Shown: positions 1,521 through 54,592, numbered from the stretch's first letter. The stretch: DNA of 64,000 nucleotides from Candidatus Poribacteria bacterium (GCA_965215265.1 OZ244048.1:2080001-2144000); one strand, 5' to 3'. A program made the numbers and translations. The notes: generated by a model not told the origin, from the sequence alone.

Positions 1521-1614
1521 GGGAGAGGATAGGGTCCGGTGGCCCTACCGGTCTTCAAAACCGGCTTGTCCATGCAAGTGGATAGGTGGGTTCGACTCCC
1601 ACCCTCTCCCGCCA
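1521..1614 (+). tRNA. selC: tRNA-Sec (anticodon UCA)
   Basis: GGGAGAGG...CCTCTCCC-G-CCA acceptor stem, anticodon arm CCGGT-CT TCA AA-ACCGG, long variable arm, GGTTCGACTCC T-arm, 94 nt, directly after selB. Confidence 0.96.
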
Positions 1615-30007: not shown

Positions 30008-30012
30008 TAATT

Positions 30013-32819: not shown

Positions 32820-35800
32820 TGTCAGATCCATTTGAAACTTATAAAATCCTTTGTGATTCTTACATTCGTTACATACAAACAATTATGGGTTTCAATGACG
32901 AGAAACTCGAAGAAGAACGTGACAAACTACTTCGGAAAAATGGACTGCTTTTCCAAGAACCTCGTTTCGAACCGATTTTTCCTTATCCATCTTCTGGAAA
33001 AACCTTATCCAAGTTGTGCTATGATGTGCAACTCCCCTCTGAACTCGGTCATTTTCTCGCACTCGGAGGCGACGATGGGCTTGCACCTAAAGATCGAAAT
33101 CTCTATCAACACCAAGCGGAAGCAATCAAAGCATCGGTTATTGAAGGAAAGGATGTCGTCGTTACGACTGGGACCGGTTCAGGAAAAACAGAATGCTTTT
33201 TGCTGCCGATCTTCAGTTATCTTATCAAGGAATCACAAAACTGGACTGATTACGGCAGCCGGAATCCCAACCACCCATGGTGGCGTGAACGTGAGAGTAT
33301 AACCGGTAAACGAGTTCCACAACGCCAAGGAGAAAAGCGTCCAGCTGCTATCCGTGCGTTGATTTTGTATCCTCTTAACGCGCTTGTTGAAGACCAACTG
33401 ATGCGGCTTCGGCGCACCTGTGACAGCCCAGGATCGCGCCTGTGGCTTGATAAAAACCGATTAAAGAATCGGTTTTACTTCGGTCGGTATACCGGTTTAA
33501 CCTCGGTTCCCGGCTACGAAAACGCAAGGAACCTCAAAAAACTTCGAGAACAACTTGATAAATTACATAAGCAAACTGAAAAAGTTCGTGATTCGGAGGA
33601 GAAGCGTTATTTCTTCCCTTCAACCGATGTTGATACGGCTGAGATGTGGTCACGGTGGGACATGCAAGAGCATCCACCGGACATTTTAATCACAAACTAT
33701 TCAATGTTGAACATCATGCTCATTCGTGACTTAGAACAACCAATCTTTGAAAAAACCAAAGCATGGCTCGAAAAAGAGGACAGTATTTTTCATCTTGTTG
33801 TTGATGAATTACACGCTTATCGCGGAACAGCAGGATCGGAGGTCGCTTATCTGCTTCGAACACTGTTCGATCGGCTAGGTCTTGAACCCGATTCTCCGAA
33901 AATACGTATCATTGCCTCAAGCGCGTCGCTTGATGGAAATGATGGACATAAGTACCTCCGACAATTTTTTGCCCGAAGTAAAGAATTTGAAATTATTGGT
34001 TCACCTCTGCATCCCGATCAAAGTGATAAACTCCGGGAGTGCCTCACGCACGCCGAACACTTTAATGCATTTGATTCCAATCGAGATTCTGTGCAGCTAG
34101 ATCAAATTCCGAAGGAACTTATCAAATCCGCTGTAGCACAACTGTGCAATCATCATGGAAAATTACACGCTTCAACGATTGGAGAGATGGTTGAAGCTGC
34201 AAATCAGGTTAATCCAACAAAAATCTCCGACGCTACTATCCGTGGGCTCATTCGCTATATAGTTCAGCAGAAGGATCCGGAAGCAACCGGGGCGCTGTTG
34301 CCCTTGCGCGTTCATTACTTTTTCAAAAACTTTGAGGGATTGTGGGCCTGTAGCAATCCAAAGTGTTGTGGCTCTACCCACGACGACACTTCTATTGGTA
34401 AACTGTACGCAACTCAGCGATTTTTGTGTGATGAATGCGGATCTCGAGTATTAGAACTATTAAGTTGTCAAACATGCGGGAACCTCTTTCTCGGAGGATA
34501 TAAACACCAAATCTCTGAGAATTCCCGCGGCTGGTACCTCAGCGGCGACTATCAAGAATTAGAAGGGTTACCCGAAAAAGGAATCAGAAATCGAAACTAT
34601 GAAACTTACGCTATCTTTTGGCAAAGAAAAGAAAAGCCAGATCGACCGCCGTGGCATAAAAATAAGAGACGTTGGGCGCGCGCCCAATTCTCTCCATTCC
34701 GTGGGACACTTATTCCGGACTCATCTGCTGCATACAATGGCCACTTTTACAAGATTGACGATCCTGATGAATCGTGTTCAGAAATTCCCAAGTATTGTCC
34801 CAATTGTGGTGATGCGTGGGATGTTTCTCGGAAAACAACTCTTGTCAATGGCAAAGAGCAAACGTATTCACCGATTCATTATATGGGCACAGGGTTGCAA
34901 AAAGTGATTCAGATCCTCACGCAAACCTTGCAAGCAACTGTCAAAGAGCAATCGAAACGGAAGACCGTCATCTTCTCTGATAGCCGACAGGACGCAGCAA
35001 AATATGCCACTGGAATTCAATGGTCACACTATCAAGATATGGTTCGACTCATCGCCGTTGAAGCAATGAAGGAACAAGAGGACTCCCCTGAATTTTCAAT
35101 TCTGCGTGATTTGCAAAATAAGACGGTTAATCGACTAGAATTCAAAGACTTCCTTATGCTTAGAAAAAAGTTTCCATACGATGAAACACTATTCGCTGAT
35201 CTCTATGAGGGAAAACCTTTGACATCCAGTCAGAAAAACCGACTTGCAGCACTTAGCAGCAATTATCAATTTACAGTTCTACAGAAGGCTTGCTTTGATA
35301 AATTTATCAATCTTGGTATGAATCCCGGAGGCTACGGTGACAAGGTTGATTCTTCTTCGACTCTTGCTAATAACGATAGGGAGGTCTTCCATAAATGGGA
35401 GGAACTCTGTAATTGGGAAACGGATCCTGTCACACTAAAGGAATTACGGTACCTTGAACGACATCAGGAACGCCTTATAGAAAATATTGAGGCTGAACTA
35501 AAAAAAGTGATTGCTGAACGAATCTTGTTCGCACGGAGAGATATGGGTTTAGAGGGACTTGGACTTGCATGGTGTGAACCCAACATGGATCCGGGCAAAT
35601 GGCCCATTGAAGGAATCGATTCTGCAGAAATGATGTCTGCCGTTACCCGAATCCTTGGCGAACGAAGATACACTAAGATTTACCGACCTGATGCTGAACA
35701 AAGGAGCATGCCAAAGTTTATGGATAATTACCTCGTAGATTCGGCAAAGAAAATTGGGTGCTCTCCGGAAAACCTCACAAGTGCAATTAGCAAACAGATT

Positions 35801-38251
35801 GAATCCTCTAATAGTTTTGACAATGACAACTACCTCATCCGCGTTGAAAACCTGAACCTTCGCTTATCTCAGGGAGACAGAATTTTCAGGTGTTCCCAAT
35901 GCAGACGCAAGCACCTTTATAAAGCAGGTGGGATTTGTACAAATACGATGTGCGGCGGCGAATTGGAGGAAATTGATAGCAAATCCGATAAACTAGAGCA
36001 ATATGGAGGCTACTATGCTTATCAAAACCGTCTAGAGCCAAACGGACTTGGAATTCAACCTTACCGTTTCCATTGCGAAGAGTTGACAGCACAAACCGAC
36101 TCGAAAGAACGGCCCAACCGTCAACGTTGGTTTCAAGGAGTTATCCTTGATAATGAAAATCAACGAACGAATGAGATAGATCTTCTCAGCGTAACAACAA
36201 CAATGGAGGCGGGGATTGACATCGGGGCACTCTCAATTGTGTTAATGGGTAATGTCCCTCCACAACGCTTCAACTACCAACAACGTGTTGGGCGCGCAGG
36301 AAGACGAGGCGAATCACTTGCGTATGCCCTCACACTTTGCCGACTGCGTACGCATGACGATCACTACTTTACTCACACAAGCGAGATTACAAACGCAGAA
36401 ACACCCCTGCCATATCTTGATATGCGGAACCAGGATATTCTCAAACGCGTTTTGGCAAAGGAAATTTTATACCACGCCTTCCGGGGCTCAGCAAATGCAG
36501 AAAACGCCAACGTAGAAAATGTCCACGGAAAATTCGGAAAGGTTTCCGATTGGAAAGTCAATCGAGAACAGCTCTCCGAATGGATTCAAGAGCGTTCTCA
36601 TCAAAGCAGAATTAAGCAAATCTTGCAGCTGCTCGCCGCACAGACGGAACCGGGAATCTCGGATAAAATGGAGGAACTGAGAATTTGGGTTATTAACAAC
36701 CTTGTGAAAGAGATTGATAATCGCGTCAAGGAACATCCATTTGAAGAAGACGAACTAAGTCAAGCACTTGCAGAATGCGGCTTGTTGCCAATGTTCGGTT
36801 TTCCTACCGGTGTACGCCTTTTGTACCATGAGCATCCAAAGATTTCAAAGTGGCCACCAACATCAGGTGTCATCGATCGAGATATTGAAATCGCCATTAG
36901 TCAATTTGCCCCCGGTTCAGAGACTATTAAGGATAAAAAGATTCATACCTCAATTGGCCTCGTCTCTTATAAACCGAGGAAAGGTCGTTTAGTCCCTGAA
37001 AACGGTATCGCGAATCGACTACGAATAGGGTTTTGTCGTAAATGCAAAGCAGTTTTCACAAACCTTGGTGAAAACCAAAATAACTGTAAAATCTGCGGAT
37101 CCGAAGAATTCAAGCAGATTGATGGAGTCGAACCTAAAGGTTTTCTTACCAATTTTAATCCAGAAGATGCTCATGAATCTTTTAGTTGGGCACCGAGGGC
37201 AACCTATTCTCGCTTACCTTCTGACTCACCTGTCAACTTGAACAAACACTTCAATTTCCGTTGGGGAACAGAAAGTAAGCTGCAACTGTTCTCAATCAAC
37301 ACCAATGCCGATCAATTATTTGAACTTCAAAAACTGGAAAAAAACGCAGCCCTTGTATCAACCAAAGTCTGTCAGGAGCTAGCTGCAAAAAATGATAGAT
37401 ACGCTTTCAATAAAGAAACGGACGTGACGGGGCCTACAGAGGAAGTAGCACTTTACGCTGCTCGGACGACAGATGTTCTATTAATTGATGTCGATGAAAT
37501 CCCTATCGGTGTTCTAACTGATCAGAGAACGGAATATTGGCGAGCTGCCCTTTATTCCTTTGGTTTTCTATTTCGTCAATTTGCAGCGAGTCAATTGGAC
37601 ATATCTCCTAATGAGCTGCGCGTTGAGATTCGACCAATCTCTTCGGGAGAGAACAGAATTCGTAAACAGCAAATATTTATTGCCGATTCATTAGCAAATG
37701 GGGCAGGATACTGTCGCTATTTAGGTGAACACCATAGTGATGGAAAACCGTTCCGACTGATTGAATTTTTACGCAAGATGATTAATCCAAACATGGATTT
37801 TGCAAAAGGGTTGATGACTCACAGCGGAGATTGTGATTCGTCCTGCTACAGCAAAGGTTGCATGCGGGACTACGCTAACATGCCCTATCATCCCTTTTTG
37901 GACTGGCGTTTAGGATTAGATGTAGCACACCTTTGCCTTGAAAAAGACTATCAGATAGATCTCCAAAAGAACCATTGGGACTCTCTGGTTGATCGAGTAG
38001 AGAAAAACTTCATGGAACTTCTCCCAGGACTTATGCGCAGAGATCGAGATGGTGTAGCTGTTTTTGAAGCACGAGCCCAGAAAAAGGCATTCATCTTGCA
38101 TCATCCTTTGGCATCTGCCGAAGAAGATCGGTTAGGACCTCATATTGCATCTGCTACAAAGGAACTTCATGAAACCGGGTTTAAGGTAGAATACATTAAC
38201 ATCTTTGATGCTATCCGTAGAGTGAGTATCGTGATGAATAAACTTAAATAG
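32819..38251 (+). CDS. Large DEAD/DEAH SF2 helicase with DUF1998 Zn domain (DruE-like)
   Basis: LYQHQ, TGTGSGKTE, YPLNAL, DELH, SSAS, TTTMEAGIDIG, QRVGRAGR, several CxxC pairs, C-terminal ADSLANGAGY...CDSSCY..C...HPFLDWRLG. Confidence 0.85.
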   Translation: MSDPFETYKILCDSYIRYIQTIMGFNDEKLEEERDKLLRKNGLLFQEPRFEPIFPYPSSGKTLSKLCYDVQLPSELGHFLALGGDDGLAPKDRNLYQHQAEAIKASVIEGKDVVVTTGTGSGKTECFLLPIFSYLIKESQNWTDYGSRNPNHPWWRERESITGKRVPQRQGEKRPAAIRALILYPLNALVEDQLMRLRRTCDSPGSRLWLDKNRLKNRFYFGRYTGLTSVPGYENARNLKKLREQLDKLHKQTEKVRDSEEKRYFFPSTDVDTAEMWSRWDMQEHPPDILITNYSMLNIMLIRDLEQPIFEKTKAWLEKEDSIFHLVVDELHAYRGTAGSEVAYLLRTLFDRLGLEPDSPKIRIIASSASLDGNDGHKYLRQFFARSKEFEIIGSPLHPDQSDKLRECLTHAEHFNAFDSNRDSVQLDQIPKELIKSAVAQLCNHHGKLHASTIGEMVEAANQVNPTKISDATIRGLIRYIVQQKDPEATGALLPLRVHYFFKNFEGLWACSNPKCCGSTHDDTSIGKLYATQRFLCDECGSRVLELLSCQTCGNLFLGGYKHQISENSRGWYLSGDYQELEGLPEKGIRNRNYETYAIFWQRKEKPDRPPWHKNKRRWARAQFSPFRGTLIPDSSAAYNGHFYKIDDPDESCSEIPKYCPNCGDAWDVSRKTTLVNGKEQTYSPIHYMGTGLQKVIQILTQTLQATVKEQSKRKTVIFSDSRQDAAKYATGIQWSHYQDMVRLIAVEAMKEQEDSPEFSILRDLQNKTVNRLEFKDFLMLRKKFPYDETLFADLYEGKPLTSSQKNRLAALSSNYQFTVLQKACFDKFINLGMNPGGYGDKVDSSSTLANNDREVFHKWEELCNWETDPVTLKELRYLERHQERLIENIEAELKKVIAERILFARRDMGLEGLGLAWCEPNMDPGKWPIEGIDSAEMMSAVTRILGERRYTKIYRPDAEQRSMPKFMDNYLVDSAKKIGCSPENLTSAISKQIESSNSFDNDNYLIRVENLNLRLSQGDRIFRCSQCRRKHLYKAGGICTNTMCGGELEEIDSKSDKLEQYGGYYAYQNRLEPNGLGIQPYRFHCEELTAQTDSKERPNRQRWFQGVILDNENQRTNEIDLLSVTTTMEAGIDIGALSIVLMGNVPPQRFNYQQRVGRAGRRGESLAYALTLCRLRTHDDHYFTHTSEITNAETPLPYLDMRNQDILKRVLAKEILYHAFRGSANAENANVENVHGKFGKVSDWKVNREQLSEWIQERSHQSRIKQILQLLAAQTEPGISDKMEELRIWVINNLVKEIDNRVKEHPFEEDELSQALAECGLLPMFGFPTGVRLLYHEHPKISKWPPTSGVIDRDIEIAISQFAPGSETIKDKKIHTSIGLVSYKPRKGRLVPENGIANRLRIGFCRKCKAVFTNLGENQNNCKICGSEEFKQIDGVEPKGFLTNFNPEDAHESFSWAPRATYSRLPSDSPVNLNKHFNFRWGTESKLQLFSINTNADQLFELQKLEKNAALVSTKVCQELAAKNDRYAFNKETDVTGPTEEVALYAARTTDVLLIDVDEIPIGVLTDQRTEYWRAALYSFGFLFRQFAASQLDISPNELRVEIRPISSGENRIRKQQIFIADSLANGAGYCRYLGEHHSDGKPFRLIEFLRKMINPNMDFAKGLMTHSGDCDSSCYSKGCMRDYANMPYHPFLDWRLGLDVAHLCLEKDYQIDLQKNHWDSLVDRVEKNFMELLPGLMRRDRDGVAVFEARAQKKAFILHHPLASAEEDRLGPHIASATKELHETGFKVEYINIFDAIRRVSIVMNKLK

Positions 38252-38442
38252 AAAAGTAATATGGAACTTCAACCACTCCCCAAACTGCAACCTATTACGA
38301 AATTATCACCTACAATGTACTTGTGCCAACTGTCTCAATCAAGAGGAAACGGATACAGACTTTACGAGATTGCTGACTGTCTTTTGCTGCTTTACTATAA
38401 ACGAGCGTGAGGTAGAACAGAATTTCGCTACTTTTTTGATGA

Positions 38443-39024
38443 ATGATGACTTTCAAATACCTGATTTGGCTCTGTTTTTCCTTCAAAGGGAGAATCAACC
38501 GCACAACCTACTAGGTCTCTATATTGAGCCTGCTACCTATTCTGACACTGCTTGGCGGCCTGAGTATGATTCTAGATGATTCTCTCACGCCCACCGTGGT
38601 TAGCGCTATCGTAGTATTGGTGGGTATAACCTTCTACTATGTATCTATCCCTATTTCCGTAAAAAGGTTCCACGACACTAACAGATCGGGCTGGAACGTG
38701 CTTTGGGGGCTTATCCCTATATTTGGCCCACTGTATATCATCATCGTCCTAGGATGCCTGAAAGGCACGGAGGGGCCAAACGCTTATGGCCCGCCTCCCA
38801 CAATGCTTCCACAAACAAAAAAAGCCATAAAATTCATTGGAGTCATTGTGCTGTCAGTAGTAGCTGCGTTAATAATTAGTTCAGGCCTGAATGATGGGGA
38901 TGATCCCACTCTGAATACAATTCCGATAGCGTTTCTGATATTCTGCATTATCCAGCACAAACTTGTATGGCAATTCGTACTGACTCGAGTTCGGGAATTG
39001 TCACGAGCTATTCGCGATGAATAG
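38443..39024 (+). pseudogene. DUF805 membrane protein with premature amber stop
   Basis: MMTFKYLIWLCFSFKGRINRTTY*VSIL... (TAG at 38512) in frame with KRFHDTNRSGW and GTEGPNAYGP. Confidence 0.75.
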
Positions 39025-39185
39025 GGTATCTACCGGAACTTATCACGCTGGCACAAGCTAGCCTTGTACGCGACATCCACCGCATCGCCTCAAAAACTTA
39101 CAATCAATGCAACCATCGTCTTTTCTCAAAGTCCCACTTCTCGCAACAACAAAGCATTGCTTGGATTTGCAGGGGAACCGGAGGA

Positions 39186-39320
39186 GTGCCATCGATGCAA
39201 ACTTATCGTCACACTCCCTTTGGGCATACGGATTGGGTCCATAGCGCATCGTTCAGCCCAGACGGCAGCACGTTCGCCACTGGGAGTAATGACGGCACCG
39301 TGCTGCTCTGGGATCTCCGC
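39186..39320 (+). pseudogene. WD40-repeat gene remnant
   Basis: One intact repeat GHTDWVHSASFSPDGSTFATGSNDGTVLLWDL (39222-39317). Upstream sequence is degenerate. Confidence 0.7.
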
Positions 39321-39330
39321 AGTTGTCTCT

Positions 39331-39588
39331 CTAAGTGTGCAAGGCTTGCAGGAACGCTTCAAAACTGGGTGTCTCAACGGCGATGAGATGCAGCTGCTTG
39401 AGCCGCACCAGGTCTGGTATGGCTTCAAGGTGCGGTTGAGTCGTCTGCACGTCGCTCTGCGGGAACCGTGCGGTGAGCACCGTGATGACGTTTTCTATCG
39501 CATTCCGGCGTGCACCTTGTTCAATGCCTTGCTCAATGCCTTGTTTGAGTCCTTGTTGCACCAGGACTTCTGCCATGGTTTCTGCCAT
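39331..39588 (-). CDS. Putative internally translated small Rpn C-terminal protein (RpnS-like antitoxin), 85 aa
   Basis: In-frame GGAGGT-7 nt-ATG inside rpn (MAETMAEVLVQQG...). Confidence 0.55.
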   Translation of the reverse strand: MAETMAEVLVQQGLKQGIEQGIEQGARRNAIENVITVLTARFPQSDVQTTQPHLEAIPDLVRLKQLHLIAVETPSFEAFLQALHT

Positions 39589-40428
39589 CTGTTTTACCTC
39601 CATCTTATCTTCTGCGAGTTGTTCCACTAATGTTACTAAGCCACTTTGTTCTGATAGCGGCCGACGATGCAAGATGAGTAGCAGGAAATAGACTATCGCC
39701 TCACGCCGCTGTTCGGCACCAACCGTATCAAACTCATCAAGGTGCGCTATCGCCGTGCGTAACGCATCCCGTATCTCCGCCTCGTCTGCTCTCTCTTTTT
39801 GCAGCACCGTCAAAAGCCACCCGAACGGATGATGCGTTTGAGTCAGTGTGGCGACATCGGTTTGCTTCACGCTCAAAAACAGCGTCTCAAAGGCAGGAAC
39901 GAACCGGGCGAGTTCAGCAGGGATGTCCATCAGTGCCTCAAGTGTCAGCGGGGTTTTCCACTCTCTCTCGCCGGTATAAAACACAATCGGCAGTATCGGG
40001 GGCAACCGCCGCGCCGGTTTGGGCACCTTGTCGTGTTCCCATTGCCTGCGATGTGCGTCCCAAATCAGCATCATATAAAACAGCACCCGAAACCCCATCG
40101 TCGCATCCACCGTCGATTGATGTTCCACGAGCAGATAGATGAGCAGCGCCTCGGTGGCTGTCTCGGTTCTAAACGGGACGCGGAACACGCTATCCGCTTC
40201 CTGCTCCCGCAGCACTTCCGGCAGCAGGCTTCTCGGGAGTGGAACGAGTTGGCTAAAATCTATGCGTTCTGCGATGTCAGCGGCGACGATTTCTAGCACA
40301 CCTCGGACGTTTTCGCCGTTTTGTAGCAAGCGCCGCACACTTCTGTCGGCGAAGTGTTCAACGCGTCCATCAAGCAGCGCGCGGATATGCTGCATCTGCG
40401 TATCCACGGCTTTGGTTTCTTGCGTCAT
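39331..40428 (-). CDS. Rpn family recombination-promoting nuclease / YhgA-like putative transposase
   Basis: EADSVFRV, LLVEHQS, LPPILPIVFYTG..W, C-terminal QGIEQG repeats. Confidence 0.9.
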   Translation of the reverse strand: MTQETKAVDTQMQHIRALLDGRVEHFADRSVRRLLQNGENVRGVLEIVAADIAERIDFSQLVPLPRSLLPEVLREQEADSVFRVPFRTETATEALLIYLLVEHQSTVDATMGFRVLFYMMLIWDAHRRQWEHDKVPKPARRLPPILPIVFYTGEREWKTPLTLEALMDIPAELARFVPAFETLFLSVKQTDVATLTQTHHPFGWLLTVLQKERADEAEIRDALRTAIAHLDEFDTVGAEQRREAIVYFLLLILHRRPLSEQSGLVTLVEQLAEDKMEVKQMAETMAEVLVQQGLKQGIEQGIEQGARRNAIENVITVLTARFPQSDVQTTQPHLEAIPDLVRLKQLHLIAVETPSFEAFLQALHT

Positions 40429-40611
40429 TTCTCTCCTCAGTGCCGGGGGCCTGCCATTCGGGCAGCCCGCCGGTAAAAAGCGGTGAAGACTTAACTCAAA
40501 TTATACTACTTTTGGCAGTAAAGATGCCACCCTTTTTTTTCTGGCGATTTCGTTTTCGCTTCTGACAGCGGAGGTTGTGGACTAAAAAAAGCAAAAACCG
40601 CTCACTTTTCC

Positions 40612-40640
40612 TTGACAATACCTCAAAAATAATGTATAAT
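40612..40640 (+). promoter_or_regulatory. Consensus sigma70 promoter of mod
   Basis: Perfect TTGACA-17 bp-TATAAT. Confidence 0.8.
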
Positions 40641-40677
40641 TAAAACAAAACAAACCAATAACCTGAAAACAACACTC

Positions 40678-43600
40678 ATGCGAACACCAAAACAGAAACT
40701 CCAAACGCTTCTCCAACAACTCTTCCGTACCGATGCCGCCGAACTCGACTTCGGCATCTACCGCATCATTAACTACCGCCGCAACCAAATCCAAAACTTT
40801 ATAGATACCGAGCTCCCCACCCTCATCAACGCCGCACTCCACGCAGACACACACGCAGAAAATGCACACCAACAGATAGAAACCCTCGCAAAACAGATAC
40901 AACAAACCCTCGGCGACACCGTCTTAGACGCAGACGGAAACCTGCTCAACGAGAACTTCAGACAAGCCCCACTTGTCCAGCAATACCTCACCGCAAAACA
41001 ACAACTCGGCACCCCCAGAACCCAAACCGAGCGCGCCGATGCCGTTTTCAATCACCTCTACACCTTTTTCTCACGCTACTACGAAAATGGCGACTTCCTC
41101 CCACGCAGACGCTACACGCAAACCCAACGATACGCCATCCCGTATAACGGCGAAGAAGTCTACCTCCACTGGGCAAACCGAGAACAATACTACGTCAAAA
41201 GCGGAGAACATTTCACCGGTTACACGTTCAAAGCCGAAGCGATTACCGTCACCTTCTCGCTCCGCACCATAGACATAGAAAAGGACAACGTCAAAGGCGC
41301 GAAACGCTTCTTTATTCCGCTCTCTGCCGAAACGCGGTATCACCCGGAAACCAAGCAGCTGGAGCTTCCGTTTGAACATCGTCCGCTCACTGATGCGGAA
41401 AAGAAGCGCTACGGCACGCAGAACCAGCAAGAGAAAATCCTTGATGCCGCTGAACCTGAAATCCTAGCAAACCTGAGCGCCCACTATGAAGTGCTGTCCG
41501 CCCTAGAGCGCCGCGCCGATGAACTAAGCCTGCTGAAGAAACACCTGCGCACCTACACACGCCGCAACACTGCGGACTTCTTCATCCACAAGGCGCTGAA
41601 GCGATTCCTGACGCGTGAGTTAGATGTATATCTAAAAAACGAGGTTATCCCTCTGTCTGGCTTTATACTTAACACATATCAAGGGGGGGGGCGGTACGGG
41701 CAAATGGAAACGGCCCCACGCCGCCACCTTGGCTTGAAACCGCACAACTCGTTCACCGCATCGCCACACAACTCATCCACTTCCTCGCAGACATAGAAGA
41801 ATTCCAGAAACGCCTCTGGCTCAAAAAGAAATTCGTCCTCTCTACCGACTACTGCCTCACGCTCGACCGGGTCCCGGAAGCGTTCTACCCCGAAATCGCT
41901 CACAACCGCGCACAACGCGAGGCGTGGCAGCACCTCTTCGCCATTGAGGATATCGCAGGCCACCTCATCAACACCCACTATTCTGAGCCGCTCACGGTGG
42001 AGTTCCTCAAGCAAAACCCGAACCTCGTTCTGGATACCTGCCACTTCGACGCAGACTTCAAAGACCGGCTGCTGGCACACTTCGACGAACTGGACGCCCA
42101 AACCGATGGACTGCTCATTCATGGAGAGAATTTCCAAGCGTTAAACCTCCTCACAGCGAAATACCGAGATGCCGTGAAAGCCATCTACATCGATCCGCCC
42201 TATAACACCAAAGGCTCCCCAATTTTGTATAAGAATGACTATAAAGATTCATCATGGATGTCCCTCATGGCTGACCGAATTGCTATTTCCCGGGAGTTAT
42301 TAACAAACAACGGTACCTTCTGTGCCGCCATTGATGACGTGGAAGCCCCTAACCTCCGGCACCTCCTCCAGCATCTCTTCGGCAAAGAGAACGAGCTCGG
42401 CATTGTTGCAGTCTGTTCCAATCCAGCGGGCAGACGAACTCCAACAGGCTTTGCTCCGGCCCACGAATATGCAATGTTTTTCAGTAAAACACAAAACTCG
42501 CGAATTAGTCCTTTGGAATATACAAAAGAACAACTCAATAGTTATAATCAAGTTGATGCCCAAGGACAAGTTTTCAAATGGGTGCCTCTTCTAAAAGGGA
42601 GCGACGCTGCTTCACGAAGAGAACTGCGGCCCCGATTGTTCTATCCAATCTTCGTCAGAGAAGATCAAATTAGAATTCCGCGCATGGAATGGGATGACGT
42701 TAGTCGACAATGGCAACTATTAGAATCTCCTCACCAAACTGAAACGGATGTCTGGCCAATTAATTCAAAAGGCGAAGAAATGAGATGGAAATACAAGGTT
42801 AAAACCTTACAAAAAAAGTTAGTTTCGTCTGAGCTTGCTGTGCATTTTGATCGAAATGACACTGTCAAAATTCAGATTAAATGGTACCTAAACAAAGAAG
42901 GTATACGACCTAAGACGTGGTGGGATAAAAAAGCATACTCAGCAACATCACATGGCTCCACTTTTTTAACAAGTATATTAGGCGATAATACAGCATTCCC
43001 GTTTCCCAAGTCTATCTATCTCGTAGAGGATTGCCTCCGCGTCTCTTCGCTGGGTAAAAACGATACTGTCTTAGACTACTTCGCAGGTTCTGGCACCACC
43101 GCCCACGCCACCATCAACCTGAACCGCCAAGACAACGGCAACAGGAAATATATTCTCGTTGAAATGGGACACCACTTCAACACCGCTCTCAAACCGCGAC
43201 TCCTCAAAGCCATATACGCACAAAACTGGAAACACGCAAAACCCACATCACGCCAAAGCACGCTCTCACACCTCTTCAAATACCAACGCATAGAATCCTA
43301 CGAAGACACTCTCAACAACATCCAGTTCAAAACACACCAAAATCCGCTCTTTGAAGAACCGATGCTACGCTACCTGTTAGGAAACGAAACCCATGAGAGC
43401 CCAACGCTGCTCAACATTGATAACCTCCAAACCCCGTTTCACTATCAACTCAACATCGTCACCGGGCTAAACACACAAACACAAACCATAGACATACCCG
43501 AAACCTTCACCTACCTGCTTGGACTCACCGTCAAAACCCGGCGCGTCTTCTACGATAAAGCCAGACGCTACCTCGTCTACCGTGGCACTCTCCAGACGAA

Positions 43601-43790
43601 GAGCGTCACGATTATCTGGCGAGAGACGCACGGCTGGCAACCGGAAGATTGGGAAAGAGACTCTCGTTTTATTCAACACCATAAACTCACGGAACACGCA
43701 GACACGCTCTATGTGAACACCGACAGCATCGTCCCCGAGGCAAAAGCGTTGGACGTGCTCTTCAAACAGTTAATGTTCAGCGAACCCTGA
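40678..43790 (+). CDS. mod: Type III R-M DNA methyltransferase (Mod), frameshifted at a G9 tract
   Basis: ELDFGIYRI / YNGEEVYLHWAN N-terminal half (40678..41796) and DPPY...DYFAGSG C-terminal half (frame open from 41673). One extra G joins them into about 1037 aa. Confidence 0.85.
41683..41691 (+). repeat. G9 homopolymer at the mod frameshift
   Basis: CAA GGGGGGGGG CGG lies within the interval where the frame must switch. Confidence 0.85.
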
Positions 43791-43913
43791 ATTGGCAGAT
43801 GCGAAAATGTTACCGTTCCGCCTTTTTTTTTCTGGTGAATATGAGAGAAAACGCCTCTGCACCTATACAGGGCGTGCGTTCTCAACCAGATGCAACATGT
43901 TACCAAAAACAGC

Positions 43914-43939
43914 AAAACGTTACCAAACGGTAACGTTTT
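43914..43939. promoter_or_regulatory. Perfect 11-bp inverted repeat, operator-like
   Basis: AAAACGTTACC-AAAC-GGTAACGTTTT abutting the AGGAG SD. Further half-sites at 43804 and 43894. Confidence 0.65.
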
Positions 43940-43955
43940 AAGGAGAAATAAAAAG

Positions 43956-44693
43956 ATGAAATTTAAAGAAAAACACAAACAATTCGCCGTCAAATGCTAC
44001 GCACGATTTATGAAACGCTCTGATGTCCTTGCGGCATTCATGTCAGAATTTTTTGACGATGTATTGCAGCCACACCTCGAAGAAAGCCTTGAAGAGAACG
44101 CCTCGGTGGAGCTCATAGAAAAAGCGGCCGATTTATTCAAGGCATTAAACATGGAAATAGAAGCCACGGAGAAAAGAATGGAGTCGTGGAATCTCCCCCC
44201 AGAGTCGGATATCACCAGCGCCGACGTAATCACCAGCTTGGCATCCTATTTTGGAAACCCAGGACTGCCTAAGGAATTTATGATCACAGTCACCAACAAA
44301 CTCTCAGAGCAACTTCGCAGGTTCGACATTACCCATCGCCAATTTCCTAAAAAATACGAGACACTGTTTTACGAAACCCGCAGAGACTTTTGCGCCAGCT
44401 ACAACGATGCCAACCTGCAAAACGCAGATAACATCGCTACGGAATTGAACAACCGCTACGGCTACACCAAACAACTCGCCTTTCAAGAAGAAGAACCGGA
44501 AAAGGCCATAAAACACGTGAACCTCGCACACCAACTCCTCAAAACCCTGATTACCTACAAAGCACTCAACGCAGAGCAAAACCTCGTAGATGTCACCCCT
44601 GAAACTGCAAAAGACATCACGGAACCGCAGAAACATTTAACGCAACAATTAGAGGAAAACGCAGAAACAACAAACGGGAAACAACCGTCATGA
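43956..44693 (+). CDS. Hypothetical protein, DUF2280-like
   Basis: KQFAVKCYARF...V...F..EF and KKYETLFYETRRDF resemble the phage DUF2280 pattern (by eye). AGGAG SD. Confidence 0.5.
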   Translation: MKFKEKHKQFAVKCYARFMKRSDVLAAFMSEFFDDVLQPHLEESLEENASVELIEKAADLFKALNMEIEATEKRMESWNLPPESDITSADVITSLASYFGNPGLPKEFMITVTNKLSEQLRRFDITHRQFPKKYETLFYETRRDFCASYNDANLQNADNIATELNNRYGYTKQLAFQEEEPEKAIKHVNLAHQLLKTLITYKALNAEQNLVDVTPETAKDITEPQKHLTQQLEENAETTNGKQPS

Positions 44694-44757
44694 GTGTCCG
44701 AACAGCCCTTGTTGTCTTTCACTAAAGTAAATGTCTACTTTTCAAGGAATTCGCACT

Positions 44758-47700
44758 ATGTCAAAACCTCGCAACCTAGAAACCGAGCTCCTCCGCCATG
44801 CCTGGCTCAATCACAACTTCGGCTACAACACCACCGGCGAGCTGCTCCACGCCATGAAAAACGAAGCGGAACGCCTCAGCCAAGACGGAAACGCCGCCCT
44901 CACTGAAGCGCTCCGCGCACGCGCCACACCGCCAATCGCAGACGCACTCCCTACCTACGACGCAAACATCCAACGCCACCTCAATGCCATCAACCGCACC
45001 CGAACCCAACCCATCCGCCTCCGCTATTTCCAATACCTCGCACTCCTCTACACCGAAATCTGCCTCGATTGGACATTGAATAAACGCACCGCCTTCCTGC
45101 ACCACCTCAACGCCTTCGTCCAACAACGCAACGCCGACAAAGCCCCCGGCGAACCCCAACATGCCCGCTTCACCGACGCAGAACTAGATAAACTCGCCTT
45201 CTGGATGGCGACAGGCGCAGGCAAAACCCTCATTCTCCACATCAACTACCACCAGTTCCGACACTACTGCCAAACCCCGTTGGATGACATTCTGCTCATC
45301 ACGCCCAACGAGGCTTTGAGCGAACAACACCGGCGCGAACTCGCAAACTCTGACATCCCCGCAGAACGCTTCCAAATGCACCGAAACCGCATCGCACACA
45401 CACACAACGCCATACAGATACTCGAAATCACAAAACTCGTCATCCAAAAAACAGGAGAAGGCGACACCATACCCGTTGAGGCGTTTGAGGGCAACAACCT
45501 TATTTTCGTTGATGAGGGACACAAAGGCACCGGCGGAGATGTCTGGCGCCACCTTCGCCAACAACTCGCCCAGACAGGCTTCACCTTTGAATACAGCGCC
45601 ACCTTCGGACAAGCGCTCGCCGCCGCAAAAAACCGAGAACGCGTTGAGGAATACGGCAAAGCCATCGTCTTCGACTATTCATACCGCCACTTTTACGCAG
45701 ACGGCTACGGAAAAGACTTCCGCATCCTCAACCTCAAACACGACGAACACACCCAAACCGAGACGCTCCTCCTCGCCAATCTCCTCGCTTTTTACCAACA
45801 GCACCACTACTTCACACACAACCGAGACAGCGCACACACCTATGGATTAGACGCACCTCTCTGGGCGTTCGTCGGCAGCAAAGTCAACGCCGTCTATACC
45901 GAAAAGCACACAAAACGCTCCGATGTCCTCAAAGTCCTCCGATTCCTCCACCGATTCCTAAAAAACCCGCACAACTGGGCCATCCGCACCCTCGCCAAAA
46001 TCCTGAATGGAGAGAGCGGCCTCACCGATGAAAACGGCACCGATGTGTTCGCCAACCAATTCCTGCTGCTCTCTCAACTTCACAAAACCCCAGCCGACAT
46101 ATACACCGCCATCCTCACAGAAGTCTTCCATACCGATACCCGTGGCGCACTGCATCTCTCTCACATCCGAAACGCACCCGGCGAAATCGCACTCAAAACC
46201 ACACACGGCCGCCAGCACTTCGGACTGCTCTACATCGGCGATACCGCTTCCTTCAAAAAACTCGTTGAAACCGATGATGCCGCCATCGTCTTCGACACCG
46301 ATAATCTCATCACGGAGAGCCTTTTCACCCACATCAACACGCCCACGAGCCCCATCAATCTGCTCATCGGCGCCAAAAAGTTCATAGAGGGCTGGGACAG
46401 CTGGCGTGTCACCGCCATGGGACTGCTCAACATCGGCAGGCAAGAAGGCGCACAAATCATACAACTCTTCGGGCGCGGAGTGCGCCTGCGCGGCAAACAG
46501 ATGAACCTAAAACGCAGCAGCGCCCTCGACGGCGAACATCCACCCCATCTCCGGCTATTGGAAACCCTTAACATCTTCGCCGTCCGGGCAAACTTCATGG
46601 CACAATTCCGAGAATACCTCACCCGTGAAGGTATCCCTGCAGAAGAACCTGTCCACATAGAAATCCCCATCAAACCCAACAAAGATTGGCTACAGACACC
46701 GCTGTTTGTCCCAGAAGTCCCAGCCTACCGCGACACCGCAAAAGACACCTGCGTGCCCTTAGCCGTCAACCCAGGCATCTATATCACCCATCGCACCCAA
46801 ACCGTTGAAATCCTACAAAGTCGCAACACCGAAAGCATACAAGACAGCACCGCACAACCCGCCATAACCCACGCACACATCCCACACGACAGCCTCAACC
46901 TCCTCAACTGGGAAGCAATCTACCTCCAACTCATCGAATACAAACAGCAAAAGCAGTATCACAATCTCATCTTCGATACCCCCACCCTCAAACGCATCAT
47001 CGCCCCAGACGCTGGCACCTATCAACTCGCCATCAGAGACGAAACTGAAATCAGCCCCACGTCTCTCACAGAACTCGCCCGGGTAGAGCAGCTCGTCCTC
47101 ACACTGCTCCGCAAGTATCTCACCAAATTCTACGGCACCATCCAGAAACGGTGGAGTGAGCATCACATCCGCCTCCGCATCTTAGACGAAAAAGACACGA
47201 ACTTCACCAACTGGCGCGTCGCCATCTCCCAAAACAACGCACAGGAACTGGTGCCGCACCTCACAGCCCTCATAGAGGCTGGCACCATCTACGGCCCCGA
47301 CTTCACCGCGCTACCCACCGCCTATAACGAATGCCACCTCTACCAACCCCTCCTCGCCGAGGACAACCGCACCATAGAACGCACCACCCCACCCCCTTTG
47401 AACGCAAGCGAAAAAGCGTTTGTCGAAGATATGCACCGATACATCCGAAAACATCACAACAGAAAACAGATTGTCCTCTTACGCAACCACAGCCGAGGCA
47501 AAGGCATCGGATTCTACCAAAACCACGGATTCTACCCCGACTTCATCCTCTGGATACTTCACGACGGCAAACAACGCATCGTCTTCATTGAACCGCACGG
47601 CCTGATGCATGAAGCCATCAACCCACACAACGAGAAAATCATGCTATTCAAAACACTCCGCCACATCAGCAGCGATACACGGTTCCGCAGTCAGTCCGTC

Positions 47701-47850
47701 GAAATGGATGCCTATATCATCTCCCACACCGATTTCACACAGATGCAGAAAAAATGCGGGTTCGACAAACAGACGTTCGAGCAGTGGCATATCCTTTTCC
47801 CAAACCCTACCGATACCACATACCTCGAACCAATTTTCAGACAGACGTAA
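44758..47850 (+). CDS. res: Type III restriction enzyme Res subunit (helicase + PD-(D/E)xK-like nuclease)
   Basis: MATGAGKT, VDEGH, YSAT, EGWD, QLFGRGVR, FYPDFILW..FIEPHG. Confidence 0.88.
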   Translation: MSKPRNLETELLRHAWLNHNFGYNTTGELLHAMKNEAERLSQDGNAALTEALRARATPPIADALPTYDANIQRHLNAINRTRTQPIRLRYFQYLALLYTEICLDWTLNKRTAFLHHLNAFVQQRNADKAPGEPQHARFTDAELDKLAFWMATGAGKTLILHINYHQFRHYCQTPLDDILLITPNEALSEQHRRELANSDIPAERFQMHRNRIAHTHNAIQILEITKLVIQKTGEGDTIPVEAFEGNNLIFVDEGHKGTGGDVWRHLRQQLAQTGFTFEYSATFGQALAAAKNRERVEEYGKAIVFDYSYRHFYADGYGKDFRILNLKHDEHTQTETLLLANLLAFYQQHHYFTHNRDSAHTYGLDAPLWAFVGSKVNAVYTEKHTKRSDVLKVLRFLHRFLKNPHNWAIRTLAKILNGESGLTDENGTDVFANQFLLLSQLHKTPADIYTAILTEVFHTDTRGALHLSHIRNAPGEIALKTTHGRQHFGLLYIGDTASFKKLVETDDAAIVFDTDNLITESLFTHINTPTSPINLLIGAKKFIEGWDSWRVTAMGLLNIGRQEGAQIIQLFGRGVRLRGKQMNLKRSSALDGEHPPHLRLLETLNIFAVRANFMAQFREYLTREGIPAEEPVHIEIPIKPNKDWLQTPLFVPEVPAYRDTAKDTCVPLAVNPGIYITHRTQTVEILQSRNTESIQDSTAQPAITHAHIPHDSLNLLNWEAIYLQLIEYKQQKQYHNLIFDTPTLKRIIAPDAGTYQLAIRDETEISPTSLTELARVEQLVLTLLRKYLTKFYGTIQKRWSEHHIRLRILDEKDTNFTNWRVAISQNNAQELVPHLTALIEAGTIYGPDFTALPTAYNECHLYQPLLAEDNRTIERTTPPPLNASEKAFVEDMHRYIRKHHNRKQIVLLRNHSRGKGIGFYQNHGFYPDFILWILHDGKQRIVFIEPHGLMHEAINPHNEKIMLFKTLRHISSDTRFRSQSVEMDAYIISHTDFTQMQKKCGFDKQTFEQWHILFPNPTDTTYLEPIFRQT

Positions 47851-51527: not shown

Positions 51528-52583
51528 TCAGAATGAATACGATGTTGCCAAAGAAAACAAGCTGCCAATTTTAATCGCATCCCCTTCAGCGTAAAGCGTC
51601 GCTTGAGTTAACGGCAACATGACGTTAGCAGAAACGGAAATCTCATTGGGCATCGCCAAGGCGATACCGAGTGCTGCTACGCTATAACGCAGCCCGGTAT
51701 TGATATCACGCTCTCCAGCCCAAGCCGCTGAAGCTTGGTAAAATCCAAGGTAGTTCCCGGTCACTGAAAGCCACCTGAATGGGCGATACCTAACCCCTAT
51801 CGTATAAGTCAACTCTACTGGACCTCGATAAGTTTTGCTATTTTCATAGACAGGAAACGTGCCACGGCCGGAAGCAGTCAGCGCCATACCTCGATAGAGC
51901 GGGAGGCTGTACTCCAAATTCGCAATCGGGTTAAAGGTACCAGTACCAAACTGGATATGGAGGTGCCTCATACCAGCATCTCCCAGTTTCCAAGGGTTTT
52001 CCTCGGTTTTACCAATCGGAATCGTGGTACCCAACCGGGCAAACAAGATGTCATCCGTTTTAAACAGCCCAGAAATTCTATAGCCTAATAACAGATCCAA
52101 ATCCGAAAATCCGACGTAGGTCTCATTTCTATGATGGATATCTCCATTATCCAAAATAGCTTGCTCATCTTCAGCACTCACTGAACTAAAGAACTCAACA
52201 TGTGCATCTTGATTTTTAATCGCATACGGAACGTTTGCTCGTAACGTCCATTGATGGTTCAGCAAGTATTGTAAACCAACATCAATTCGGTACGTGCTCA
52301 TCTCGACATGGTGTCTATGCTCAGGAACGCGCACAACTTCTCCTGTTGGTGAAAGTCCTTTTTTTGAAAAATGTCCACCTTGTGCATTAGGGGACATCAA
52401 CATATTGACATTAAGGCGAAATTGCCTCATCTCTTTTGAAGTCAAACTGACTTCACCTATCCCGCTCGGCGGCAAGATAGGATTGCTTCATGCAGGGCAG
52501 CTTTCTTGGGTGAACCCAACAGAGATAAAAACCCAATTTAGCAGCATGATGTGTAGGAATAGACTCATTTTCATGTTACGCAT
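51528..52583 (-). CDS. Putative selenoprotein: outer-membrane beta-barrel with N-terminal CxxU motif (351 aa)
   Basis: GGAGG-6 nt-ATG at 52583, signal-peptide-like N-terminus, ES-C-P-A-UGA(52490..52488)-SNPILPP in frame with ORF 51528..52475, alternating beta-strand pattern, terminal YSF. Confidence 0.78.
52456..52481 (-). promoter_or_regulatory. Candidate bacterial SECIS element
   Basis: Six nt after the UGA: CCUAUC-UUG-CCGC-CGA-GCGG-GAUAGG hairpin with a U-rich bulge and G in the apical loop. Confidence 0.68.
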
Positions 52584-52948
52584 TTTAGTCCTCCGAAAAG
52601 TACTTTAACATCAGTTTTATATAAACCGTAGGCATACAGGCTTGAACCGCTTGTGCGGTTGCATGCTGCCATCTCGTCACCACTCTGGAAGCGCACAAAC
52701 CTCCTCTTGAACCCGATGTCCAATTTTACAAAGAAGCACGTTCGCTATCCGGTGGATGCGGAAGGGCTAGCACATGTCACACTATTTTTATTCTTCACTA
52801 TAAATAGCCCTAATAGAACGACAAGCACTATTGCCACCAGACACAGCCCACAGAAAAGTTGCGGACAACGCTCGGCAGCATGCCCTATTTTGCTCGATTT
52901 TAAAATTTGAACCTGAACTCTGATATGAAACGCCACACGCCCAACGCG

Positions 52949-53356
52949 TTAAGAACTGGCGCACGGAGGACCCCGACGGGCTATGGTGTAACGGAGCGAA
53001 ACAGCAAATAGATGTGGAGGGTCAGGAAGAAGGGATGAACTCACAGACGCAGCCGACAAGCAGAACCTATCCTGCTTATACAATTCACCGACTGCAATCT
53101 GAAGAAATTTGGCTCGGGCGGTACTCTCATTTCGATAAATGCACTCAAACTTGGCAAAGCAGCATAACTCTTGACTCTCTGCAGGTACCTCAGATGCATC
53201 CGCGGCATTTCCGCAACACCTCTCGCGGTGTTCCACGCTCGAAGAAGCAGCACGACACAACTTCTGTTCTAAACCCGCACAAAGAAGCGGACATATTGAA
53301 TAGACATACACTATGCCTACAATTAGGATAAGAAACTGCCGGGATTTGGATAACAT
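52949..53356 (-). CDS. Small exported Cys-rich protein with C-terminal RGPP motif (DUF2946/CruR/CutF-like leader)
   Basis: Hydrophobic N-terminus, CPLLC, CC, CC, C-terminal ARRGPP. Confidence 0.6.
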   Translation of the reverse strand: MLSKSRQFLILIVGIVYVYSICPLLCAGLEQKLCRAASSSVEHRERCCGNAADASEVPAESQELCCFAKFECIYRNESTARAKFLQIAVGELYKQDRFCLSAASVSSSLLPDPPHLFAVSLRYTIARRGPPCASS

Positions 53357-53629: not shown

Positions 53630-54592
53630 ATGCCGTATCTCAAAATTCCCAAAAGATGGAACATACCCGAAAAACAGGTAACCCCCGAATCAGATTATAT
53701 CAACCGTCGAACATTTCTCAAAACACTCGGCATAACAAGCGCAGGCGCATTATCGTTGTTCGGCTCAAGCGCTTGTGCCCAAGGAAGTGGCGTTGAAAAA
53801 CAGTTAAAGCCATACCAAGCAGAGGTGCTCCCTGCTGAGAACAATCCGCAGTTTACGGTAAACCGCGCGATGACAGATGAACACGTCGCGGCGACTTACA
53901 ATAACTTCTATGAGTTTACTTCATCCAAATCCAGAGTCTGGAAAATGGTCGACCGGTTCCAAACCCGCCCGTGGGAAATTGAAGTATCCGGCCTCGTAGA
54001 CAAGCCGCAAACCTTCGACATCGACACACTTCTCAAACAGATGCCCCTGGAAGAGCGAATCTATCGGTTCCGATGCGTCGAAACCTGGGCGATGGTGGTA
54101 CCTTGGATCGGATTTCCCATGAGCGCACTGCTAGAGAAAGTGCAACCGACTTCCAAAGCCAAGTACGTCCGAATGGTCACGTTCTTCCGACCTGATGAGG
54201 CACCCGAACAGATGGATCCGCGTAGCCCGTGGCCCTACTATGAAGGATTGACGATCGAGGAAGCCATGAACAAACTCACCCTCATCGTTGTCGGTATCTA
54301 TGGGCACATACTGCCACCGCAGCACGGCGCACCGCTCCGGCTAATTGCACCCTGGAAATACGGTTTTAAAAGCATCAAATCAATCGTTAGCATTGAGTTG
54401 ACAGACCGGAAGCCGCGCACCTTTTGGAATACCATTTTTCCACGTGAATACGATTTTGAGGCAAACGTCAACCCCAACGTCCCCCATCCGCGCTGGTCAC
54501 AGGCACAGGAACGCATGATTGGCACAGGTGAAAGACATCCGACAGTCATTTACAACGGTTATGGGCCAGAAGTCGCACACCTTTACAAGTAG
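53630..54592 (+). CDS. msrP: Methionine sulfoxide reductase catalytic subunit MsrP (molybdoenzyme)
   Basis: Tat signal NRRTFL, YNNFYEF, RFRCVETW, PWKYGFKSIKSI, HPRWSQA. Confidence 0.93.
   Translation: MPYLKIPKRWNIPEKQVTPESDYINRRTFLKTLGITSAGALSLFGSSACAQGSGVEKQLKPYQAEVLPAENNPQFTVNRAMTDEHVAATYNNFYEFTSSKSRVWKMVDRFQTRPWEIEVSGLVDKPQTFDIDTLLKQMPLEERIYRFRCVETWAMVVPWIGFPMSALLEKVQPTSKAKYVRMVTFFRPDEAPEQMDPRSPWPYYEGLTIEEAMNKLTLIVVGIYGHILPPQHGAPLRLIAPWKYGFKSIKSIVSIELTDRKPRTFWNTIFPREYDFEANVNPNVPHPRWSQAQERMIGTGERHPTVIYNGYGPEVAHLYK

Follow-up and report, generated by a model that had tools for sequence, protein, structure and literature searches.

A single in-frame TGA interrupts a gene of a Candidatus Poribacteria bacterium, and the question raised by this locus is whether that codon ends the gene or is read as selenocysteine (Sec) and, in the latter case, what an exported selenoprotein of this type might do. 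In the window (the whole stretch of 64,000 nucleotides that was analysed), an ORF listing of the locus under translation table 11 returns only an ORF of 315 aa (51528..52475, minus strand). The first-pass annotation had extended this frame through one TGA (52490..52488) to an ATG at 52583 preceded by GGAGG, an extension that can be read directly in the sequence. The complete gene (51528..52583, minus strand) starts with the ATG at 52583..52581, carries the Shine-Dalgarno motif GGAGG (52590..52594) 6 nt 5' of this codon, and encodes 351 residues followed by a true stop codon, which is also a TGA (51530..51528). The TGA at 52490..52488 corresponds to codon 32 and is the sole in-frame stop between start and terminator, such that the selenoprotein gene is completed by read-through of this one codon.

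Reading frame, export signal and selenocysteine machinery

The read-through translation begins with MRNMKMSLFLHIMLLNWVFISVGFTQES-C-P-A-U-SNPILPPSG... and ends with ...SLATSYSF at the C-terminus; the His clusters noted earlier, EHRHH (residues 88-92) and HHRN (residues 150-153), as well as the terminal Phe, are all present in it. Residues 1 to ~25 (52509..52583, minus strand) resemble a signal peptide, with a helix from residue 2 to 21 in the structural model described below. If the cleavage site is placed as in relatives, between ...FGFA and QES, the mature protein would start with QES-C-P-A-U, in agreement with the initial placement of a CxxU motif at the predicted mature N-terminus. This C-P-A-U motif (52488..52499, minus strand) is made of a Cys codon TGC (52499..52497), two intervening codons and the presumed Sec codon TGA (52490..52488).

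The selB and tRNA-Sec genes that had been reported for the same window are indeed found there, as the 3' part of selB (3..1493, plus strand; TIGR00475, E 1.8e-41, with SelB winged-helix domains) and a tRNA-Sec with anticodon TCA (1521..1614, plus strand). The genome from which the window is taken, a single contig of 4.83 Mb, encodes selA (588.6 bits), selB, selD (359.6 bits) and tRNA-Sec, selD itself having an in-frame TGA. If the TGA of codon 32 were instead a genuine stop, or an error of the assembly, translation of the barrel described below would begin at a downstream start, e.g. TTG 52475, and the frame before it would be without meaning. This would agree with the table 11 ORF and with all public gene calls, which break at the TGA: the annotation found elsewhere is a fragment of 268-315 aa beginning after the UGA, and the database record of the window gene itself (P0002) has 268 aa. 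Yet a barrel begun past the TGA would be devoid of a signal peptide, and the genome holds the full Sec machinery. A genome-wide reassignment of UGA to Trp or Gly was also considered and rejected, since the gene itself stops at a TGA.

Conservation of the UGA, its hairpins and its cysteine counterparts

A protein search with the window product returned 548 relatives. Among the 120 listed, nearly all have annotated lengths of 291-312 aa and align to 82-88% of the query, which implies that their annotated starts fall just past the TGA; the named relatives among these 120 are Candidatus Poribacteria. As a first set, the DNA of 27 genomic loci was translated upstream of the called starts, and two of them were excluded, one cut by a contig end (L020) and one with a spurious 63-residue match (L027). 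All 25 usable loci keep the frame, the signal peptide and the QES(C/U)-motif followed by a stop and then SNP, and the stop at motif position 2 is TGA in every one of them, as in the window. Four of these loci, two from distant Poribacteria (L023, L024) and two from Acidobacteriota (L025, L026), also have TGA in place of the Cys codon and thus carry a UxxU motif. A second scan with a 29-row alignment yielded 292 genomic relatives, the best 80 of which are all Poribacteria, and 77 of 78 further loci have TGA at motif position 2, the remaining one (L070) being cut by a contig end. The TGA is hence not unique to one assembly (25 of the 27 first loci and 77 of the 78 further ones), and its retention across the loci of relatives argues against a chance event. 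The 77 readable Poribacteria loci divide into two paralog groups, with 44 C-P-A-TGA and 33 TGA-G-A-TGA motifs; clade A has Cys at motif position 1, and clade B as well as Acidobacteriota have TGA there. When the phylum was sampled evenly, a match turned up in 122 of 151 Poribacteria genomes, often in two copies. Among the 150 matches listed from this sample (83 more lie beyond these), almost all have one or two in-frame TGA codons, the exceptions being a match truncated at residue 71, a partial one containing a TAA, another with an additional TAA and a fourth with three TGAs.

The first-pass annotation had also asked for Sec/Cys pairs, and these exist: at the position of the UGA, homologs carry Cys rather than Trp, Arg or Gly. 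An all-against-library search gave 412 cluster representatives at E <= 0.001, 11 of which have Cys at both motif positions (P0126, P0128, P0133, P0137, P0167, P0201, P0215, P0235, P0243, P0260 and P0263). These 11 are full-length or longer N-terminal forms with CPAC, CAAC or CPGC motifs, for example GQACPACSNP, ACAACGNP and ACPGCSNP; the exact counterpart CPACSNP is found in four proteins (P0126, P0128, P0133, P0137) and in 22 Bacteroidota loci. Two other representatives, P0178 and P0185, show W at motif positions, which we read as probable gene calls under another genetic code. selB was found above cut-off in five of five genomes with TGA forms versus none of five Bacteroidota genomes with Cys forms, whose best selB matches cover the GTPase part only. 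This comparison supports the view that the Sec or Cys state tracks the presence of selB.

The stem-loop predicted earlier to follow the UGA is present at 52481..52456, and a second one at 52455..52437. Hairpin 1 (52456..52481, minus strand) has a 10-bp stem that begins 6 nt past the UGA and a loop ~17 nt past it, while hairpin 2 (52437..52455, minus strand), directly after it, has a 7-8-bp stem GAAGUCA/UGACUUC and the loop GUU. The 71-nt segment of the window has a minimum free energy of -24.3 kcal/mol (z -2.71), a stability reached by 2 of 200 shuffles. In an RNAalifold consensus of 12 diverse sequences both hairpins are retained, with compensatory changes in 7 of 17 pairs. A fold control, applied to 75 nt from the second motif codon of all distinct sequences with mononucleotide-preserving shuffles, gave a median z of -2.2 for CxxU (n=42) and -2.4 for UxxU forms (n=36) versus -0.78 for Cys forms (n=21), and no common hairpin was found in the 75-nt folds of the 21 Cys-form sequences. 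Over 82 distinct sequences, 99.7% of the hairpin 2 cells are paired, with both-sided changes in two pairs. The rows of Acidobacteriota and of L024 show G-C/A-U exchanges in this hairpin, and a U-A/U-G alternation in it accompanies a Thr/Ala change. Hairpin 1 is found in every clade with register shifts, its loop G being absent from some sequences. The loop of a bacterial SECIS element usually lies ~17-22 nt after the UGA, and ~40 nt is at or past the range of bacterial SECIS models. The loop of hairpin 1 lies ~17-22 nt past the second UGA, and that of hairpin 2 ~40 nt past the UGA. Both UGA and hairpins are thus kept in Sec-using relatives, and on sequence grounds the two hairpins are SECIS-like candidates that appear confined to TGA forms. 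In the UxxU forms, two UGA codons 9 nt apart are followed by the two hairpins, which makes these forms a useful natural case for SECIS elements serving closely spaced Sec codons.

Given these comparisons, we are highly confident in reading codon 32 as selenocysteine and the gene as one for a real selenoprotein. A stop or an assembly error at this position appears very improbable: the upstream frame, the signal peptide and QES(C/U)xxU are kept in ~100 loci from separate assemblies, Cys takes the place of the TGA precisely in phyla of which the sampled genomes are devoid of selB, and the hairpins track the TGA. Since every public call examined truncates the gene, the selenoproteomes of Poribacteria, Acidobacteriota and other phyla appear to be undercounted.

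The relationships among the motif variants were examined in a quick IQ-TREE phylogeny of 58 sequences, built from the region after the motif only and rooted at the midpoint, in which several metagenomic rows sit on long branches. TGA forms and forms truncated by gene callers make up one group (SH-aLRT 93), separate from a Bacteroidota CxxC group (SH-aLRT 89) and from a deep CxxC group (SH-aLRT 100). The CxxU clade of the window (SH-aLRT 99) is nested among UxxU forms and may therefore be a Poribacteria-specific derivative of a UxxU ancestor. In this midpoint-rooted tree, UxxU would represent the ancestral Sec form and CxxU a derived Poribacteria paralog.

Fold of the predicted product and its place among known barrels

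The outer-membrane beta-barrel suggested from the sequence takes shape in an AlphaFold2 model (88-row alignment; mean pLDDT 89, pTM 0.85), in which the helix of residues 2-21 is followed by a low-confidence tail (residues 22-54; pLDDT 31-61 for residues 21-50) and by twelve strands (residues 55-350), with two short helices in the loops. The 12-stranded barrel (residues 55-351; 51531..52421, minus strand) ends with the C-terminal Phe, and the product is very likely an outer-membrane barrel. The top PDB matches in Foldseek were FapF (E 4.5e-13) and the COG4313 channel 4rl8. Upon structural realignment, 4rl8 ranked first (Z 24.8, rmsd 2.7 Å, 254 of 268 residues aligned at ~11% identity), followed by FapF (Z 23.4) and other 12-stranded barrels, and PcoB (7pge; Z 12.6, rank 49) came out at the level of unrelated barrels. 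These comparisons support a 12-stranded barrel of COG4313/FapF type for the modelled protein. Sequence-based matches are fainter: Pfam PF13557 scores 19.7 bits on the window protein, under the gathering cut-off of 22, and matches 6 of 29 family members at E <= 0.01; a few database homologs bear a precomputed PF13557 label, and the atlas neighbours of the family are PF13557 clusters. When PDB sequences were searched with a profile, no barrel reached significance (FapF, E 0.9), and the weak thioredoxin matches of this search stem from fused alignment members.

Seven His residues of the barrel are conserved (71, 89, 91, 150, 151, 207 and 209); among 88 sequences, those at 91 and 151 never vary and those at 71, 150, 207 and 209 hardly do. 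They are part of the conserved motifs H71, H89xH91, IH150H151R and GKTEENP...H207xH209xQFGTGT, to which YENSK and W288..ERDxNxG are to be added. If both termini are periplasmic, as they are in other barrels, the strand order of the model would put these motifs in the outer half of the barrel or in its outer loops.

The COG4313 channel of Pseudomonas putida F1 (4rl8; PF13557) is likewise a 12-stranded outer-membrane barrel with inward-folding outer loops, but unlike the window family it has neither an N-terminal CxxC/CxxU tail nor Sec, nor a link to HMA or thioredoxin genes. This channel is thought to transport hydrophobic molecules rather than metals. The window protein might accordingly be considered an ordinary channel of this type for hydrophobic or aromatic compounds, its Cys/Sec pair serving only to staple or anchor the N-terminal tail and the metal genes found near relatives being coincidental island neighbours. 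The best structural match (4rl8, Z 24.8), the weak PF13557 matches and the PF13557 clusters next to the family in the atlas speak in favor of such a channel. We nevertheless consider it unlikely, as a pair with a purely structural task would hardly be maintained in different phyla in the form of Sec, which is costly, at both positions and as we know of no counterpart of the conserved His cluster in COG4313 channels. The amyloid secretion channel FapF (5o65, 5o67) is also a 12-stranded barrel (12-14% identity), yet differs by its fap operon context and the absence of a Cys/Sec motif. In FapF the pore is occupied or plugged by an N-terminal segment, which sets a precedent for a tail of this kind acting within the barrel. 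PcoB/CopB (7pge) is an outer-membrane barrel of metal resistance with a disordered metal-binding N-terminal region; its resemblance to the window protein is generic (Z 12.6), it is without Sec, and the window protein and family members have no Pfam match to a CopB/PcoB-type family.

Exported and outer-membrane selenoproteins are rare, and the window family is large. A 2026 review of prokaryotic selenoproteomes, in its accessible part, names two outer-membrane selenoproteins, GSU2204 of MtrB/PioB type and an FCYXU TonB-dependent receptor (PMC13188914). GSU2204 (NF041027) and the TonB receptor (NF049945) are likewise Sec-containing outer-membrane barrels, the latter also with CxxU, but they are much larger, belong to different barrel families and have Sec elsewhere, and neither NCBIfam model matches the window protein. 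The family is covered by no model of Pfam or NCBIfam. No NCBIfam model at all matched the window protein at E <= 0.01, nor five barrel-only Cys-form proteins at E <= 0.001; P0133 matches only metallochaperone-type models (CopZ, MerP and related ones), on its C-terminal HMA domain. A barrel of COG4313/PF13557 type was not found among the selenoproteins catalogued in the tables of the 2026 review (PMC13188914), nor in the available parts of a 2022 review (PMC9312934), deep-Sep (PMC12013277) and BSepDB (PMC13326102). With the families of Haft and Tolstoy (2025) compared through the review table and NCBIfam, the barrel family appears uncatalogued as a selenoprotein within these sources, and the initial impression of an undescribed family holds to the same extent. 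The Poribacteria selenoprotein literature that we found deals, in the portions available, with Sec-containing [NiFe] hydrogenases.

Metal-related neighbourhoods and possible function

The Cys forms of the family are embedded in a distinct genomic context. In 19 of 22 Bacteroidota loci, which span many families, the ORF immediately 5' of the barrel gene, which it abuts or overlaps in the same orientation, has ~216 aa and combines an HMA with a thioredoxin domain (WCGPC); two of the remaining loci have no such gene and one has an upstream ORF of the same size. The HMA+thioredoxin gene is also found upstream in both Acidobacteriota UxxU loci, and one of the HMA+thioredoxin ORFs has a clear signal peptide. 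MerT matches occur beside nine of the 22 Cys-form barrels (eight above cut-off), MerA is encoded next to one of them (L110; TIGR02053, 501 bits versus a cut-off of 454), and a MerA-like domain architecture is seen at another (L113). Regulators of CsoR type (8 loci) and ArsR type (5 loci), small Thioredoxin_3 proteins (5 loci), HMA P-type ATPases (2 loci), a multicopper oxidase, a CDF transporter and a weak Csp1-like match complete these neighbourhoods. Domain fusions are found as well: of ten homologs longer than 395 aa, eight have a His/Asp-rich linker and, C-terminal to it, a thioredoxin domain (one of them with an additional cupredoxin domain), one has an HMA domain and one has no extra domain. 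The C-terminus of outer-membrane barrels is periplasmic, and the fused thioredoxin and metal modules would therefore lie on the same side of the membrane as the N-terminal CxxC/CxxU tail. An ordinary channel for hydrophobic compounds is hard to reconcile with the independent domain fusions and with an HMA+thioredoxin gene that adjoins the barrel gene in 19 of the 22 Bacteroidota loci and also in Acidobacteriota.

Soft-ligand pairs two residues apart that pass on Hg(II) or Cu(I) are known from the MerP/MerT CxxC relay and from HMA metallochaperones, including the UxxU type NF041115. Some members of these groups likewise have Sec for Cys, and their genes physically adjoin those of Cys-form barrels; they are however small soluble or inner-membrane proteins, whereas the motif of the window protein stands at the N-terminus of an outer-membrane barrel. 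The accessible part of the 2026 review mentions metal-related selenoproteins, among them MerT-like proteins, the UxxU HMA and the SO_0444 transporter (PMC13188914). By analogy with its relatives, we lean towards a function of the family in handling thiophilic metals (Hg, Cu). The guess of copper, mercury or redox handling made at the outset gains indirect support from the gene neighbourhoods and fusions of relatives, but none from the neighbourhood of the window gene itself, in which no mer or cop genes were found.

In Poribacteria, a gene for a small Cys-rich protein without family match (52949..53356, minus strand) lies directly upstream on the same strand. The N-terminus of its product is hydrophobic and closes with CPLLC, after which come the invariant C, CC, CC and RRGPP; the gene was found by tblastn at 21 first-set loci (27 sequences aligned) and goes with the CxxU paralog. 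Other neighbours in the window are a divergent MsrP gene, a peptidase and a squalene-cyclase-like protein, and this neighbourhood as a whole is uninformative as to function. The UxxU paralog of the same genome (C1:1352758-1353768, with two TGAs) belongs to a group that sits after an aldo-keto reductase (33 of 33 loci) and before a solute-binding protein (32 of 33). That these paralogs adjoin an aldo-keto reductase and a solute-binding protein and not metal genes again speaks for an ordinary channel, yet the synteny of the Cys-rich ORF, MsrP and aldo-keto reductase is weak evidence since the Poribacteria genomes are close kin. The best MerA match in the genome of the window reaches 377.6 bits, below the cut-off of 454.45, and no MerT was found there. 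For Poribacteria this leaves a role with mercury unsupported and copper or another substrate as likely, and among thiophilic metals we would rather think of copper, or of one other than mercury, in this phylum.

The same Sec barrel might alternatively use its CxxU/UxxU motif as a redox centre, i.e. as a selenylsulfide or diselenide switch cycled by a thioredoxin-fold partner. Such a switch might serve as a gate or plug of the channel, or deliver reducing equivalents to a substrate in the periplasm or at the surface. CxxC and CxxU motifs of known selenoproteins are mostly redox-active, according to a table of the 2026 review (PMC13188914). In addition, no partner is more constant than the thioredoxin domain (WCxPC; 19 of 22 adjacent genes, 8 of 10 long homologs fused), and a gene for MsrP, which carries out redox repair in the periplasm, lies divergently next to the barrel gene in the window and in 11 Poribacteria loci. 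On the other hand, the thioredoxin partner nearly always also has an HMA metal-binding domain, the fusions include His-rich linkers and a cupredoxin domain, the nearby regulators are metal sensors, and the barrel has seven conserved His, such that we regard a purely redox role as a minor possibility. The redox and metal readings are compatible, as a periplasmic metal relay needs reduction. MsrP as a functional partner was set aside, its adjacency being limited to 11 closely related loci and to the opposite strand.

We slightly favor a full reading of the protein as an exported Sec barrel that would act as an outer-membrane gate or relay for thiophilic metals (Hg, Cu). SelB and tRNA-Sec would decode the UGA of codon 32 with the aid of the downstream hairpins, while the final UGA, having no such hairpin context, would terminate translation. 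A Sec-type signal peptide would export the product, leaving the mature QES-Cys-Pro-Ala-Sec on a flexible tail of ~25 residues, with both ends of the barrel presumably directed toward the periplasm. There, CxxU (ancestrally UxxU, and CxxC in other phyla) could serve as a soft-metal ligand pair for receipt or hand-over of Hg(II) or Cu(I), in cooperation with the conserved His residues, which would cluster in the barrel lumen or its outer loops. A periplasmic thioredoxin-fold/HMA partner may keep the motif reduced or exchange metal with it, and in Poribacteria the upstream small Cys-rich protein probably replaces this partner. The use of Sec over Cys might provide tighter binding of Hg or Cu and easier re-reduction in the oxidising periplasm. 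On such a function, the family would connect selenium use with metal handling at the cell surface.

A more specific and speculative version, which we put forward only tentatively, would see in the protein a missing outer-membrane step of soft-metal traffic. Here, the UxxU/CxxU motif, capable of forming a diselenide or selenylsulfide, would act as a 'ball on a chain' that loads Hg(II) or Cu(I) at the His-lined barrel; the tail would then swing back and hand the metal to the periplasmic HMA-thioredoxin protein, which would re-reduce the motif. If true, mer operons would have a dedicated outer-membrane entry gate for Hg(II) feeding MerT and MerA. An available portion of a mer operon review describes no outer-membrane component (PMC8261052), and literature searches linking COG4313 with mercury, or joining selenoprotein, outer-membrane protein and mercury, found nothing. 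The Poribacteria sponge symbionts would, on the same assumption, have two paralogs with different partners and employ selenium in dealing with copper or further thiophilic metals acquired from filtered sea water. More generally, the Cys relatives point to an undescribed outer-membrane component and its HMA-thioredoxin partner in the mercury and copper resistance clusters of Bacteroidota, and the function is directly testable since Cys forms occur in culturable lineages. Lastly, three of the five HMA matches in the genome of the window themselves contain an in-frame TGA.

A second family copy and the public records of its relatives

The genome from which the window comes carries, outside the window, a second copy of the outer-membrane barrel family (G000:C1:1352758-1353768, minus strand), in which both positions of the UxxU motif are in-frame TGA codons (FAQDS-U-G-A-U-SNPAIPRGG). 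An aldo-keto reductase gene lies directly 5' of this copy and a gene for a family-5-like solute-binding protein 3' of it; the former arrangement recurs in all 33 related loci and the latter in 32 of them.

Tryptophan occupies the motif positions in two of the collected protein entries (P0178 and P0185; DSWGAWSNP and CSLWSNP), probably because the gene caller read TGA under another genetic code. Relatives, P0069 among them, are truncated in the public records, where one bears the name "restriction endonuclease subunit S".

Other TGA-containing genes in the genome

Three of the five HMA-domain matches in the same genome contain an in-frame TGA (G000:C1:2909995-2910180, 2910408-2910590 and 3280315-3280491), two of them in tandem, and these may encode selenocysteine-containing metallochaperone-like proteins. 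The selD gene (G000:C1:4044300-4045226) has one in-frame TGA as well, as in the known selenocysteine-containing form of selenophosphate synthetase, to which it belongs.

Gene neighborhood of the CxxU paralog in the window

A small conserved protein is encoded at 52949..53356 (minus strand), and its gene is always found 5' of the CxxU paralog in Poribacteria. Searches of Pfam and NCBIfam gave no match for this protein, which displays seven invariant cysteines (in order, a CPxxC that closes a hydrophobic helix, C, CC and CC) and a C-terminal RRGPP motif. MsrP (NF003767, 428.6 bits) is encoded at 53630..54592 on the plus strand; its TAT-signal match is weak and falls under the PF10518 cut-off (E 0.0086). 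No MsrQ-like gene was found 3' of MsrP; the next ORFs, whose listed frames overlap each other, encode a Peptidase_MA_2 protein and a metallophosphoesterase.

Elsewhere in the window, a large-ORF island (27998..47850) has the look of a region for restriction or defence. It comprises a DEAD/Helicase_C protein (1815 aa), a ResIII helicase (1039 aa), a YhgA-like transposase, an N6_N4 DNA methylase, three ORFs without family (669, 637 and 298 aa) and a weakly matching DarA/DUF2280-like ORF.
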